Origin: Escherichia coli
GTDB taxonomy: Bacteria > Pseudomonadota > Gammaproteobacteria > Enterobacterales > Enterobacteriaceae
Length of the DNA stretch: 64,000 nt
Strand: one strand, 5' to 3'
NCBI RefSeq assembly: GCF_030013595.1
Contig: NZ_CP122768.1
Within the stretch, counting starts at the first letter, position 1. Each line of letters begins with the position of its first letter. Below the pieces are notes generated by a model, which was not told the origin of the DNA, made no database searches, and worked only from the letters and a program-made list of their open reading frames with translations. Below are positions 54,916 through 58,699 of the stretch, in pieces. A program made the position numbers and the translations under genes.

Positions 54916-55158
54916 TCACCGGTTCTGGTGCAGAAGCTGCAGATGACGAAGAGCACGGACATCCTTCCGGGCCTGTTCGATGCAGGGCAACAGTGCTGCT
55001 GAATCCGTTCTATCCTCATCGTTGTCAAAGATAATTCCCGATTCGCAGTCGATATTGTCCTGTAGCCACGCAATCAGAATATCCAGTGCGGTTTCCGTGG
55101 TTAATGATTTCATGTTGTTTCTGGTTACCAATCGAAAGTGGGCTGGTCCGGCAGACAT
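54916..55158 (-). CDS. Small hypothetical protein (likely start at MKSLTTE, about 65 aa)
   Basis: ORF immediately downstream of and overlapping the YeeW-like gene end; acidic. Confidence 0.35.
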   Translation of the reverse strand: MSAGPAHFRLVTRNNMKSLTTETALDILIAWLQDNIDCESGIIFDNDEDRTDSAALLPCIEQARKDVRALRHLQLLHQNR

Positions 55159-55613
55159 TCAGCGCTGGCATCCAGATGAATAAGACTGACGCCATAACGT
55201 TGGATGAGTGTGACAACCAGACGACGGAACGTTTTTGACAACCCCAGGCGTTTAAGCCGCAGAACCGGATATGACCACGCATCGGTACGTAACAGATACC
55301 CTCTGCCTGTGAAATGAATCCATTCTGATTCACCGAAGTCACTGGTCTGGTGTGACAGCGAGTACAGCCAGGCGTTATCCTTTTCCGTGATATGTGCGGT
55401 ACTGCAGCGTATGCCGGCAAGGGTTGCAAACGGTGGTAGTGTGCAGGTTGACTGTTGGTCGGATTCCTCCACCACGCGGAGTGAATAACCGTTTTCAGCG
55501 ACCTTGTTAATCAGTTCAGTGAGATTAACACCATCGACATCAACGACAATTCGCCCCATGTTCAGTGCCTGCACATTAATGCTGTCGGCTTCCAACGTCA
55601 GGGCCAGTTTCAT
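55125..55613 (-). CDS. YeeW-like prophage protein
   Basis: 162 aa; start overlaps the CbtA-like stop; matches YeeW-family members found downstream of cbtA in CP4-44-like islands. Confidence 0.6.
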
Positions 55614-55987
55614 TGTTTCGCCTCCGGATGCTTCCCCTGGGTAATGTTATTTACCGTTCTGTAGTTATCGCGGGTCATCAGGCCGGTTGCCCTGCGAGCC
55701 CGGAGAATATCAATACTGTTTATTAACTGAGAGCGGGTACAGGCGCTGAATCCCGGCTGGTCGGTACGTACCAGTGCGTATTTTTCAACGAGAAAGTTCA
55801 CCGCATCACACAGTGAAATGCCAGCTTCAATATGCTGCTCAATCACACGTTCATCGGCGAACGGTGTGTCATTCAGCGTAAGGCCGTAATGCTGGTCCAG
55901 CAACCGGGACAGCAGTGTCTGCCAGATGGTGACGGGAGACGGGCAGCGCGATGCCTCCCGTACGTGTGTGTCGGGTAATGTTTTCAT
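55610..55987 (-). CDS. cbtA: CbtA/YeeV-family toxin (cytoskeleton-targeting type IV toxin)
   Basis: 125 aa; strong similarity by eye to YeeV/YkfI/YpjF ([30 protein letters not shown]...). Confidence 0.8.
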
Positions 55988-56076
55988 ACTGAAGATTTTC
56001 CTGATATGCAGAGATGAAAAATGGAAAAGTGGCGTGGTGAAAACACCAGGCCGGAGCAGAAGATTATTCTGATGAT

Positions 56077-56505
56077 TTACTTTTTCGTTTCGGGCGTCGG
56101 ATAAACAGCCAGATAAACGTAACCACAGGAGCCGAAGGTGTCGGCTTCGCAGGTCAGCCCTTTCGCATACAGTGTCACGGTATGCTGATGGTGGGGATTC
56201 AGTTCACCGCTGGTGAGCATGAGTTCCAGTTGTTTCATCAGCAGCGGAAAGGCCTGGTCCAGGTGGTACGAATCCGCGTCGCTGAACCGGCCTCTGATAC
56301 CGGCGCGGTCTGTAAGGTAATGCAACCGGTTACCCTCCTGCACCAGACGTGCCCCGAAACAGGGCGTCACGGTGCAGGGCAGCCCCCACCAGGGGCGGTC
56401 GTTGTTGTTGTCGGGATGCGTTGTCCCGGGCAGTGTGTCTGACACGATAAAGTCCTCACAGAAATCAGTTAAGAATGGTTCGATGGTGGCGATAATTCGG
56501 CTCAT
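56077..56505 (-). CDS. cbeA: CbeA/YeeU-family antitoxin
   Basis: Contains [43 protein letters not shown]; true start may be the internal GTG near 56445. Confidence 0.75.
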
Positions 56506-56523
56506 CAGAATGCCCTTCCTGAC

Positions 56524-56745
56524 TCAGTTCAGGGTGACGCTCATCAGCCGGACATACGGGCCAAAACTGTCCTTACGACGTTCAGCAAACACGGCCAGCA
56601 CACCGGGAATATCCTGCACTTCACGACCGGTATACGCTTCAGTGCTGCCGTGCCAGCGGTATTTGCCGGTACAGAACGGGAAAAGACGGGATGCAGGATG
56701 TTGTTGATGAATACGCATGGCTTCGCCACGGGTGATGATTTTCAT
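56524..56745 (-). CDS. YeeT-like protein (DUF987)
   Basis: 73 aa; matches YeeT/YkfH-family small proteins found upstream of cbeA. Confidence 0.65.
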   Translation of the reverse strand: MKIITRGEAMRIHQQHPASRLFPFCTGKYRWHGSTEAYTGREVQDIPGVLAVFAERRKDSFGPYVRLMSVTLN

Positions 56746-56813
56746 GGTGGGATACCTCTGAAGACAGAAGATAAAAGTGAAAACAGGTGTGATGTGATTG
56801 TGGCGGTAACGGG

Positions 56814-57290
56814 TTAAAGCAGGCCGTGTTCCGCAAAGGAGAAAACCTGGCTGCCACCGACTATCAGATGGTCCGGCACCCGGATATCCACCAGGCCCAG
56901 TGCCTGTACCAGACGTTCCGTGATAAGGCGGTCTGCCTTGCTGGGTGTGACTTCACCGGACGGGTGGTTGTGTGCCAGTATCACGGCGGCGGCATTGTGG
57001 TACAGGGCACGTTTAATCACTTCCCGGGGATGGACTTCCGTGCGGTTGATGGTGCCGGTGAAGAGGGTTTCACCGACAATCAGCTGATTCTGGTTGTTCA
57101 GATACAGCACCCGGAACTCTTCCCGCTCCAGTCCCGCCATGTTCAGAATCAGCCACTCCCGTGCCGCATGCGTGGAGGTGAAGGCCACGCCGGGTTCATG
57201 AAGATGGCGGTCCAGGGTTTTCAGGGCCCGCTGAATGAGGCTGCGCTCGCCGGGCGTCATCTCTCCGGGCAGAAAGGAAAGCTGTTGCAT
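56814..57290 (-). CDS. RadC-like JAB-domain protein (YeeS/YfjY family)
   Basis: 158 aa; HNHPSGEVTPSKADRLITERL JAMM-like motif. Confidence 0.8.
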   Translation of the reverse strand: MQQLSFLPGEMTPGERSLIQRALKTLDRHLHEPGVAFTSTHAAREWLILNMAGLEREEFRVLYLNNQNQLIVGETLFTGTINRTEVHPREVIKRALYHNAAAVILAHNHPSGEVTPSKADRLITERLVQALGLVDIRVPDHLIVGGSQVFSFAEHGLL

Positions 57291-57304
57291 TGTTCCGGCC
57301 CCTT

Positions 57305-57790
57305 TCAGTCAATGATGCACATAATGGCGTTGCATTCCGGATGCTGCAGGGCGTAATCCCGCAGCCGGTAATAATGGACCGTCATGGCATAACACTCCGT
57401 ACGACAGGCATGATGGCTGTACGTCATCAGACAGGCAGCAATGCCGGCGGCTTCCGGGCTCATTTCAGCGCGGTTACCGTTCATGGCACTGAACAGTACC
57501 CATGTTTCGTCATCATCGTCATCCGGTTCGGGTGCCATAAATGCCCCGCCGTTGTTCAGGGTGTACAGATTCCAGATACCACCGCAGTAGTCTTCGCACA
57601 GACGGTCCATCCAGCCGAAGACACGGGGCTCCAGGGTCACCCACTGTGGAATGAGGCCAAAATGCTGCGGCCAGAAGCTGATGCGCTGTTCATCAGGGAC
57701 GAGGGTGGCAACCAGTTGAGGCGGGTTATTCTCTGATACAGCGGTTACGGAAACAGAAGGTGTGGTGGAATTATGCAAAACGGTTGTCAT
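57305..57790 (-). CDS. Antirestriction protein (ArdB/KlcA-like, YfjX/YafX family)
   Basis: 161 aa; acidic DDDDD stretch; family resemblance to island antirestriction proteins. Confidence 0.7.
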   Translation of the reverse strand: MTTVLHNSTTPSVSVTAVSENNPPQLVATLVPDEQRISFWPQHFGLIPQWVTLEPRVFGWMDRLCEDYCGGIWNLYTLNNGGAFMAPEPDDDDDETWVLFSAMNGNRAEMSPEAAGIAACLMTYSHHACRTECYAMTVHYYRLRDYALQHPECNAIMCIID

Positions 57791-57880
57791 GAGATTATTC
57801 CTTATAAAAAGTAAATGAATGGAAGAAGTCGCGGGGCAGGGACGGACATGAGTCAGAACTGCGCTTTCAGGGAAAAGGCA

Positions 57881-58699
57881 TCAGCGCATACTCTTCAGCA
57901 GTGTTTCTGCCATCACCCACAATGCGCGATTGAGCTTAATGTCCGTGTCGATGCTGTGAATGGCACGGGTATGGATACGTTTTCCTCTGGCACTGCGACC
58001 GGAAATCCCGCCTTTCAGCATATTCTCCTGGATGGTCTGATAAGCACTCCACAGGTCCTTACCGTAATCCTCCCGGCGTCGCGGTGTCAGAATGTCAGCA
58101 GTGGTGACGGGCTGATGTTCGTCACCATAACGGTAAGTCAGTGCCGCCTGTGCCAGCGCCTGGCGTGCCGGTGGCGGCAGGACCAGCGACTGCATGGCAT
58201 CACGCTTCTCCTCAATCCGGTCAAAAACCCCCACCACCTCGTAAGCCCCTTCGATAACTTTCTCCACTACGTCTCCCCGGTGTGGAACACGCACTTCCCC
58301 CAGAGACTGACCACAGACGCATCCGTTCTGGCAGACGAACCTGAAGTAACCCGGCAGCATCTGGTAGCTGGAGGTACCGTCATGAGAGTTCAGCAGGATG
58401 ATTTCAGGGACATGTTCTCCGTTTATCTCTCCGGCCCGCCGCAGACGCAGCATGTGTTTGGTGTATCCCCGGCGGCCCGGGTCGCGCACGCGGGTCTGGC
58501 AGGCGAAGAATGGCTGGAAGCCTTCCCGCTGCAGGCTTTCCAGCACGGTGATGGTGGGGATCCAGGTATAGTTCTCGCTTCTGGATGTGTGTTTCTCTTC
58601 CCCGAATACGCTGGGGACGACCTGCATCAGTTCTTCACGGGTTAAGGGGCGGTCACGGCGTATCTGGTTCGCATAACCAAAACGACTGGCTAATCGCAT
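57881..58699 (-). CDS. DUF932-family protein (YfjQ/YafZ-like)
   Basis: 272 aa; resembles YfjQ/YafZ of CP4-57/CP4-6. Confidence 0.65.
   Translation of the reverse strand: MRLASRFGYANQIRRDRPLTREELMQVVPSVFGEEKHTSRSENYTWIPTITVLESLQREGFQPFFACQTRVRDPGRRGYTKHMLRLRRAGEINGEHVPEIILLNSHDGTSSYQMLPGYFRFVCQNGCVCGQSLGEVRVPHRGDVVEKVIEGAYEVVGVFDRIEEKRDAMQSLVLPPPARQALAQAALTYRYGDEHQPVTTADILTPRRREDYGKDLWSAYQTIQENMLKGGISGRSARGKRIHTRAIHSIDTDIKLNRALWVMAETLLKSMR

Follow-up and report, generated by a model that had tools for sequence, protein, structure and literature searches.

The analyzed window is a stretch of 64,000 nt of Escherichia coli DNA, the minus strand of which carries between 58699 and 55125 seven intact genes, coding in this order for a DUF932 protein, an antirestriction protein, a RadC-like JAB protein, YeeT (DUF987), CbeA, CbtA and YeeW (DUF5983). 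Position 58699 belongs to the start codon of the DUF932 gene and 55125 to the stop codon of the DUF5983/YeeW gene. The block extends past this stop codon with genes for DUF957 and DUF4942, so that nine genes are present in total. All are full length, and frameshifts or premature stop codons were found in none of the nine; CbtA, CbeA, YeeS and YeeT are of full length by comparison with K-12 CP4-44, apart from a shorter annotation of yeeS in K-12.

Gene identities were assigned by Pfam profile matches and by the RefSeq annotation of the corresponding locus in strain NDM2, which is 99.8% identical and whose gene calls match those made in the window. E-values of the size obtained here (e.g., 2.2e-44) are too small to arise by chance. 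The five gene types named in the original prediction were all confirmed in strand, order and position (Pfam E 3.9e-36 to 4.4e-63), whereas the full-length DUF5983/YeeW gene at 55613-55125 had been left unnamed. Since nine intact genes lie on one strand with short spacers, the block probably forms one or a few operons; the paralogous genes of CP4-57 have been described as the single operon lfgABCDE (PMC10846083).

The first gene (57881-58699, minus strand) codes for a DUF932 protein of 272 aa, a homolog of YafZ/YfjQ that matches the full Pfam profile (PF06067, E 4.8e-51). It shares 75-76% identity with K-12 YfjQ and YafZ, and 271 public contigs carry the exact protein. The next gene (57305-57790, minus strand; 161 aa) belongs to the ArdB/KlcA antirestriction family (PF03230, E 3.9e-36), and its product has identities of 73% with YfjX/LfgA and 71% with YafX of K-12, besides matching the PHROG family "anti-restriction protein". 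Searches against known structures returned PDB 2WJ9 (E 1.3e-96, residues 10-161) and KlcA (2KMG, E 4e-19). The depositors of 2WJ9 named it only "intergenic-region protein"; we take it to be ArdB of E. coli CFT073. Both structures fall into the same Pfam family as the gene described here, with a very close match to 2WJ9. By this homology, the 161-aa protein is predicted to have antirestriction activity: it would block type I restriction in vivo and could thus aid maintenance and transfer of the island.

The third gene (56814-57290, minus strand; 158 aa) codes for a RadC-like JAB protein homologous to YeeS (PF04002, E 2.2e-44), with 97.3% identity to K-12 YeeS, 83% to YkfG and 78% to YfjY/LfgB. 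The metal-site motif H-x-H-x7-S-x2-D (HNHPSGEVTPSKAD) can be read from its translation, and the protein scores 149.9 bits with TIGR00608, above the cut-off of 133.85. Antirestriction and RadC-like genes had both been credited with establishment functions of mobile elements. Such a function has been shown only for ArdB-type proteins; for RadC-like proteins, the activity is disputed between protease (PMC10846083) and nucleic-acid processing (PMC5512222). The fourth gene (56524-56745, minus strand; 73 aa) codes for YeeT/DUF987 (PF06174, E 2.1e-39) and is 97.3% identical to K-12 YeeT at the protein level.

The host might have recruited the block for use as a stress-response operon instead of one serving the island, as has been proposed for lfgB of CP4-57. 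This would be in line with the report that the RadC-like K-12 protein LfgB degrades the antitoxin MqsA and protects from H2O2 (PMC10846083), and with the lower oxidative-stress resistance observed after deletion of the three toxin genes (PMC5371832). We regard it as unlikely, as the RadC-like protein described here is just 78% identical to LfgB and the variable copy number of the block, together with its movement as part of islands, fits a role serving the element. The protease assay of LfgB was moreover qualified by its authors, who noted low solubility and possible contaminating proteases (PMC10846083).

The core of the block is a putative type IV toxin-antitoxin pair of the CP4-44 type. The antitoxin gene cbeA (yeeU; 56077-56445, minus strand; 122 aa; PF06154, E 3.2e-53) is located immediately upstream of the toxin gene cbtA (yeeV; 55610-55987, minus strand; 125 aa; PF06755, E 4.4e-63, profile positions 1-112 of 112) on the same strand. 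The spacer of 89 nt corresponds to the CP4-44 type, for which 88 nt have been reported in K-12 (PMC5371832). Aligned along all 122 aa, CbeA differs from its K-12 counterpart by 13 substitutions without any indel (88.5% identity), and it matches the YeeU structures PDB 2INW and 2H28 (E 1e-75 to 7e-77). Its GTG start codon is called likewise by RefSeq in NDM2; it was considered as a change from K-12 and rejected, because the K-12 DNA reads GTG at this position as well, and it is no defect. An in-frame ATG at 56505, upstream of the GTG, could yield a form of 142 aa. CbtA is 90.3% identical to K-12 CbtA (125 versus 124 aa), and the exact protein was found on at least 1000 public contigs.

Inactivating mutations had been named as the finding that would speak against a functional pair; neither reading frame contains a frameshift, a premature stop codon or a truncation. 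By homology to the tested K-12 proteins, toxicity, rescue and cytoskeletal targets are to be expected of this pair, and the block would supply a presumably active toxin-antitoxin system directed against the cytoskeleton. CbtA would bind FtsZ and MreB and thereby block cell division and elongation, while CbeA would act by stabilizing or bundling the same filaments, not by binding the toxin. Loss of the island would in this way be penalized by the pair. The related pairs YkfI/YafW and YpjF/YfjZ have been described as toxic and rescuable (PMC5371832).

The differences between the two CbtA proteins are concentrated at the N-terminus, where a segment appears to have been replaced. Ten of the 12 substitutions, S14R and R15C among them, fall within residues 6-24, whereas residues 25-116 are unchanged. 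Residues 13-17 read SRCPS instead of SSRPS, so that the arginine is located at position 14 rather than 15, which is occupied by a cysteine. The FtsZ-binding determinant Phe65, the exchange of which to serine disrupts FtsZ binding (PMC5624674), is present, whereas the determinant of MreB binding in K-12 CbtA, Arg15, is absent. As R15C abolishes MreB binding in K-12 CbtA (PMC5624674), dual targeting cannot be assumed for the protein encoded here. Cys15 is, however, the natural residue in YkfI and YpjF, and YpjF nonetheless binds MreB (PMC5624674); Arg15 thus defines the K-12 allele and not the family. A natural Cys15 variant of CbtA is a detail of mild interest.

It is conceivable, if rather doubtful, that this very common CbtA allele has a target balance other than that of K-12 CbtA and, separately, that the intact nine-gene block functions in establishment, in the manner of a leading-region operon, once the island is mobilized. 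An allele acting on FtsZ only, for example, would produce filaments instead of lemon-shaped cells, and the variable N-terminus would then be the part of this toxin family that sets MreB specificity.

Downstream of cbtA, the DUF5983 gene (55125-55613, minus strand; PF25638, PF19419) codes for 162 aa, corresponding to K-12 YeeW in full length. The start codon of the gene overlaps the stop codon of cbtA by 4 nt, here and in K-12, and the exact protein bears the public name Aec77. The overlap, together with the adjacency of both genes in all E. coli copies listed, would suit a three-part toxin-antitoxin system with DUF5983/YeeW as an obligate third component, either a chaperone or a regulator of CbtA. 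This was judged very improbable, as the K-12 pair CbtA/CbeA functions in spite of a YeeW shortened to 64 aa, and as the toxin genes of CP4-6 and CP4-57 are not followed by a DUF5983 gene. Distant DUF5983 homologs also lack an adjacent CbtA: one is located on a plasmid near DUF932 and IncFII RepA, and another, on a contig of 1.2 kb, has an SLT transglycosylase as its neighbor.

The DUF5983, DUF957 and DUF4942 genes are members of the same block. The DUF957 gene (54916-55113, minus strand; 65 aa) was taken from the RefSeq annotation of the identical NDM2 locus; scanning of an 80-aa ORF version gave no Pfam match, and the exact protein occurs under the name DUF957 on at least 1000 public contigs. 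The DUF4942 gene (53989-54831, minus strand; 280 aa; PF13708, E 1.6e-66) is the last gene of the island. Its product is found, named "Aec79", on 649 contigs, and the domain also occurs within a PHROG family of phage DNA methyltransferases. K-12 has neither a Cys15 CbtA nor full-length YeeW, DUF957 and DUF4942 genes, so that the present locus may be a better template than K-12 for studies of the uncharacterized members of the block.

The block was also searched for signals of transcription and for RNA genes. No sigma-70 promoter scoring above chance was found in the block. A strong terminator-like hairpin (58768-58739) is located 40 nt upstream of the DUF932 gene. The 326-nt spacer upstream of this gene was folded on both strands in order to detect an Frpo-like single-strand promoter; its z-score of about -3.3 is explained by two ordinary terminator hairpins, no long hairpin was seen, and the candidate was rejected. 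When the block was searched for hidden RNA genes with Rfam (E-values up to 1), only two sub-threshold matches were obtained, both outside genes; the gathering score is passed by a single RNA, the IsrC/IS102 RNA upstream of Ag43. Repeats between 53700 and 64000 comprise only short families at chance level and the internal repeats of Ag43.

The closest K-12 counterpart is CP4-44, in which yeeS-yeeT-cbeA-cbtA-yeeW are collinear on the same strand and the DNA is 91% identical over 1.8 kb (window 57266-55465). The GTG start of cbeA and the cbtA/yeeW overlap are common to both loci, and similarity extends upstream to a yeeP fragment (97.7% identical), an IsrC-like RNA and Ag43 (85-89% identical). 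Differences are found in the region between flu and yeeS, where K-12 carries yeeR and the window carries the DUF932 and antirestriction genes, and in the location, as CP4-44 is not inserted at pheV. The description of the locus as CP4-44-like consequently stands for yeeP, isrC, flu and yeeS to yeeW, and has to be withdrawn for the DUF932 and antirestriction genes. The order of antirestriction, RadC-like, DUF987, antitoxin and toxin genes is shared with CP4-6 (yafX-ykfG-ykfH-yafW-ykfI) and CP4-57 (yfjX/lfgA-yfjY/lfgB-ypjJ-yfjZ-ypjF), so that the proposed alignment to the K-12 modules bears out gene identities and order. The proteins of these two prophages are only 61-83% identical to those encoded here (71-76% for DUF932 and antirestriction), their toxins are shorter (109-113 aa) and their antitoxin-toxin spacer measures 20 nt (PMC5371832). 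Both islands carry DUF932 and GTPase genes further upstream, where several genes separate DUF932 from the antirestriction gene, whereas the two are adjacent here; DUF957 and DUF4942, like DUF5983, do not follow the toxin.

Much of CP4-44 in K-12 is decayed: the integrase was lost (PMC5371832), DUF4942 is entirely deleted, DUF957 lacks its 5′ part and yeeW its 3′ half, which leaves a YeeW of 64 aa compared with the 162 aa found here. As a neighboring yeeP-like GTPase gene in the window is frameshifted by a 1-bp deletion, the block might likewise be a non-functional remnant. This is highly improbable given that all nine genes are full length and that an unrelated strain has a locus with the same DNA sequence as the window from about 53900 to 58100. 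The exact proteins are found again on hundreds of contigs, up to at least 1000, and this speaks for purifying selection or recent spread.

At the downstream end, a 22-nt copy of the 3′ end of the tRNA-Phe gene pheV (TTCGATTCCGAGTCCGGCACCA) is located at 53857-53878 on the minus strand. This distal direct repeat, which has one G fewer than the pheV gene, adjoins yghD/gspM, the neighbor yghD being the same as in K-12. The K-12 pheV-yghD DNA aligns with 97.3% identity to window positions 53878-53099; the alignment begins within pheV, 23 nt from the end of the gene, and the similarity of other E. coli block copies is lost at query positions 148-158, i.e., at about 53847-53857 of the window. With the pheV repeat beside yghD at its end, the block constitutes the distal end of a pheV-integrated island, which confirms the predicted placement. 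The opposite end of the window (64000) falls inside the island; neither a tRNA gene nor an integrase, an oriT or a relaxase is present in the 64,000-nt window. The island of the related strain NDM2 continues for more than 50 kb and carries a BREX system. Taken together, the block very likely belongs to a P4-like, tRNA-integrated genomic island of E. coli that is inserted at pheV, and forms the conserved distal module of this island, with a CP4-44-type CbtA/CbeA pair. Marking the distal boundary of the pheV island, it matters little beyond correct annotation.

The BREX system of the same island in NDM2 and the fact that many toxin-antitoxin systems of islands defend against phages could suggest that CbtA/CbeA is chiefly an abortive-infection system. 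Such a role appears quite unlikely: none of the nine proteins matches a PADLOC defense model, by which a known anti-phage system in the block was rejected, and a phage phenotype of these systems is reported in none of PMC5624674, PMC5371832, PMC10846083 and PMC6174562.

The distal island module defined here is already well known and ordinary in E. coli. The block has matches in 5373 of 5426 complete E. coli genomes, with a median of three copies, and for every protein looked up the exact sequence is already public. As predicted, it also occurs in other tRNA-integrated islands: the same set has been reported from STEC and APEC, in islands at pheV, pheU and selC, with YeeP/NgrB, Ag43, KlcA, YeeS, YeeT, YeeU, YeeV and DUF957 as in the window and, again as here, a tRNA direct repeat with a frame shift relative to K-12 (PMC6174562). 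There is no difference of substance between these islands and the block, and the remaining cargo varies by strain.

Homologs of single block genes are furthermore found on plasmids. The query has matches in at least 5000 plasmid records, of which 4356 are conjugative, and among the rows sampled the match lies in the DUF932 or the JAB gene. JAB/RadC homologs are carried by conjugative plasmids. In F-like plasmids, the stretch between hok/psiB and the tra genes holds oriT and enters the recipient first. On an IncFIA plasmid, a DUF932 homolog (66.5% nucleotide identity over 479 nt) is located between hok/psiB and an SLT gene, traM and tra genes. The RadC-like JAB metalloenzyme and DUF932 count among the genes typical of leading regions of conjugative elements. 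None of oriT, relaxase, ssb and psiB was seen in the window, for which the genes over 53700-64000 were inspected, and the likeness to a conjugative leading region is one of shared gene content, not of membership.

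The genes of the block were assigned with Pfam, apart from the DUF957 gene, which was taken from the RefSeq calls in the 99.8% identical locus of E. coli strain NDM2. In the ORF list of positions 50000-64000, an uninterrupted minus-strand series runs from 58699 to 53989. It comprises genes for a DUF932 protein (58699-57881, E = 4.8e-51), an antirestriction protein (PF03230; 57790-57305, 3.9e-36), a RadC-like JAB protein (57290-56814, 2.2e-44), the DUF987 protein YeeT (56745-56524, 2.1e-39), the antitoxin CbeA (ORF 56505-56077, gene 56445-56077, 3.2e-53), the toxin CbtA (55987-55610, 4.4e-63), a DUF5983 protein with N- and C-terminal domains (55613-55125, 1.1e-30 and 4.1e-20), a DUF957 protein of 65 aa (55113-54916) and a DUF4942 protein (54831-53989, 1.6e-66). 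These nine genes lie on the same strand, -4 to 90 nt apart, and no frameshift or premature stop was found among them. The coordinates 55125-58699 of the original prediction, a CP4-44-like cargo, are exact, as they correspond to the DUF5983 stop codon and the DUF932 start codon, but its title omitted the DUF5983 (YeeW) gene. None of the nine proteins matched a PADLOC defence model.

The block is an already known, near-ubiquitous island module of E. coli with an ordinary architecture. The region 53700-59000 was matched in 5373 of 5426 complete E. coli genomes, at a median of three places per genome, and at least 80% of it was covered in 3603 of the matching genomes. For all seven block proteins looked up, the exact sequence is public, with contig counts per protein from 271 to at least 1000; the names Aec77 and Aec79 are attached to the DUF5983 and DUF4942 proteins, respectively. 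This gene set is also listed for the pheV, pheU and selC islands of STEC, with YeeP/NgrB, Ag43, KlcA, YeeS, YeeT, YeeU, YeeV and DUF957 (PMC6174562). Some interest attaches solely to the natural Cys15 variant of the CbtA N-terminus and to the intact YeeW, DUF957 and DUF4942 genes, which K-12 lacks.

The K-12 cryptic prophages CP4-44, CP4-6 and CP4-57 were taken from NC_000913.3 and the proteins were compared by BLASTP. CP4-44 DNA is collinear with 57266-55465 at 91% identity, from the yeeS start to mid-yeeW. Protein identities to K-12 amount to 90.3% for CbtA (YpjF 65%, YkfI 61%), 88.5% for CbeA (YafW/YfjZ 64-66%), 97.3% for YeeT and 97.3% for the RadC-like protein with YeeS (YkfG 83%, YfjY/LfgB 78%). 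The antirestriction protein shares 73% with YfjX/LfgA and 71% with YafX, whereas CP4-44 lacks a counterpart, and the DUF932 protein shares 75-76% with YfjQ/YafZ; in CP4-44, yeeR occupies the place of these two genes. Furthermore, the 3′ half of yeeW, the 5′ part of the DUF957 gene and the entire DUF4942 gene, all intact here, are deleted in CP4-44. Judged from this DNA and protein comparison, the locus is related to CP4-44 but more complete, its upstream part being patterned as in CP4-6/CP4-57. The predicted kinship to the K-12 modules was thus borne out (91% DNA identity to CP4-44, 61-83% protein identity to the CP4-6/CP4-57 homologues); the observation is confirmed and its interpretation supported, with minor refinements.

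The genes before 53708 belong to the T2SS-beta cluster (gspH-M/yghD). The K-12 stretch that starts 23 nt before the pheV 3′ end and extends through yghD can be aligned to 53878-53099 with 97.3% identity, and 53857-53878 is the reverse complement of TTCGATTCCGAGTCCGGCACCA, i.e., the pheV 3′ end minus one G. A similar shift was described in pheV and pheU repeats (PMC6174562). Since this copy lies beside yghD and no tRNA gene was found in the window, the sequence places the block at the distal end of a pheV-inserted island extending beyond 64000, in line with the island association proposed originally.

No inactivating mutation was found in cbtA or cbeA, as expected for the predicted toxin-antitoxin pair. 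CbeA differs from K-12 CbeA at 13 aligned positions without indels and matches the solved YeeU structures 2H28 and 2INW (E about 1e-76). Masuda and colleagues reportedly found in 2012 that CbeA bundles FtsZ and MreB filaments without binding the toxin. The cbeA start codon is a GTG preceded by GAGGA, with GTG at the same site in K-12. Twenty codons upstream (56505, minus strand) lies an ATG in the same frame, preceded by a favourable Shine-Dalgarno sequence, so that a CbeA of 142 aa is possible; in K-12, a 1-nt difference makes the equivalent ATG open a separate 16-codon ORF ending at the cbeA ribosome-binding site.

CbtA residues 25-116 are identical to K-12 CbtA, including F65, whose exchange to serine abolishes FtsZ binding there (PMC5624674). 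Ten of the 12 substitutions fall within residues 6-24, and residues 13-17 read SRCPS instead of SSRPS. In K-12 CbtA, R15C alone causes loss of MreB binding, and filaments replace lemon-shaped cells; C15 is natural in YkfI and YpjF, of which YpjF still binds MreB, and C15R is without effect in both (PMC5624674). By its sequence the allele is not inactivated, but K-12 CbtA is no guide to its MreB activity. A 279-aa database protein carries CbtA_toxin and DUF5983 domains in one chain; a frameshift at the 4-nt overlap of cbtA and yeeW probably fused the two.

The targets of tested CbtA are the H6/H7 loop of FtsZ and the flat face of MreB, and its binding blocks division and elongation (PMC5624674); by homology the CbtA described here would do the same. 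Toxicity that can be rescued has been described for the paralogous toxin-antitoxin pairs (PMC5371832). For the antirestriction protein, PDB 2WJ9 is a very close match (E = 1.3e-96). This structure is presumably ArdB of CFT073; ArdB and KlcA are said to block type I restriction in vivo (Serfiotis-Mitsa and colleagues, 2010). DUF932 homologues are present on thousands of plasmids, mostly conjugative. On an IncFIA plasmid the gene is flanked by hok/psiB and by an SLT gene, traM and tra genes, a stretch which we take to be the leading region adjoining oriT, as in F-like plasmids. This placement supports the predicted establishment function for DUF932, while published activities conflict for the RadC-like protein, which retains the JAB metal site HNHPSGEVTPSKAD. 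Its CP4-57 paralogue LfgB, from five genes treated as a single operon, was reported to degrade the antitoxin MqsA (PMC10846083), whereas Aravind and colleagues predict nucleic-acid processing (PMC5512222).

With 218 representatives among 1.84 billion proteins, the DUF5983 family is small; it shows the conserved motif C-S-T-A-H-I-T-x-x-D-N and the invariant residues H74, D79, G105, S126 and W162. In the AlphaFold model (mean pLDDT 77.8), the C-terminal domain has block means of mostly 89-97, and prediction of the N-terminal domain is poor. An obligate third partner of the toxin-antitoxin pair was considered, but CbtA does not accompany distant members: a 290-kb plasmid carries one of them close to genes for DUF932 and IncFII RepA, and another adjoins an SLT gene. 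DUF5983 is therefore probably a mobile-element gene rather than such a partner.

Upstream, three elements are shared with CP4-44: an Ag43 gene (85-89% nucleotide identity to flu), an IsrC/IS102 RNA and a yeeP-like GTPase gene (97.7% over 515 bp). The Ag43/Cah-family autotransporter gene (59026-61947, minus strand; 973 aa, 948 aa by RefSeq in NDM2) holds most differences to NDM2. The 326-nt spacer between it and the DUF932 gene contains two strong terminator-like hairpins (59005-58979 and 58768-58739, minus strand) with stems of 12-13 bp followed by a T run. A mere 40 nt separate the end of the second from the DUF932 start, and a promoter scan of the block gave no match above chance. Directly upstream of the Ag43 gene lies the IS102/IsrC sRNA match (61891-62127, minus strand; Rfam RF00124, 68 bits, gathering score 46), with three GATC sites at about 62090-62125, an arrangement known from the Dam/OxyR phase-variation switch of agn43. 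Between this RNA and the yeeP-like gene, the minus strand has ten consecutive C (G on plus, about 62180-62190) where NDM2 reads GGGGGTGTA; this may reflect a tract prone to slippage or an artefact of sequencing. In the yeeP-like gene (62244-63154, minus strand), 1 bp is deleted near 62452 compared with the intact NDM2 gene of 873 bp, which leaves two overlapping ORFs (62441-63154 and 62244-62630); the gene is therefore probably a pseudogene, like K-12 yeeP. A low-GC ORF (0.40; 63225-63956, minus strand) corresponds to a segment of a 'hypothetical protein' gene that measures 1020 bp in NDM2 and extends past the window end. In NDM2, a closely related strain, this pheV island (NZ_CP083886.1, 812000-850000) contains hha, zinc-ribbon genes, many IS elements and a complete BREX-1 system (brxL, pglZ, pglX, brxC).
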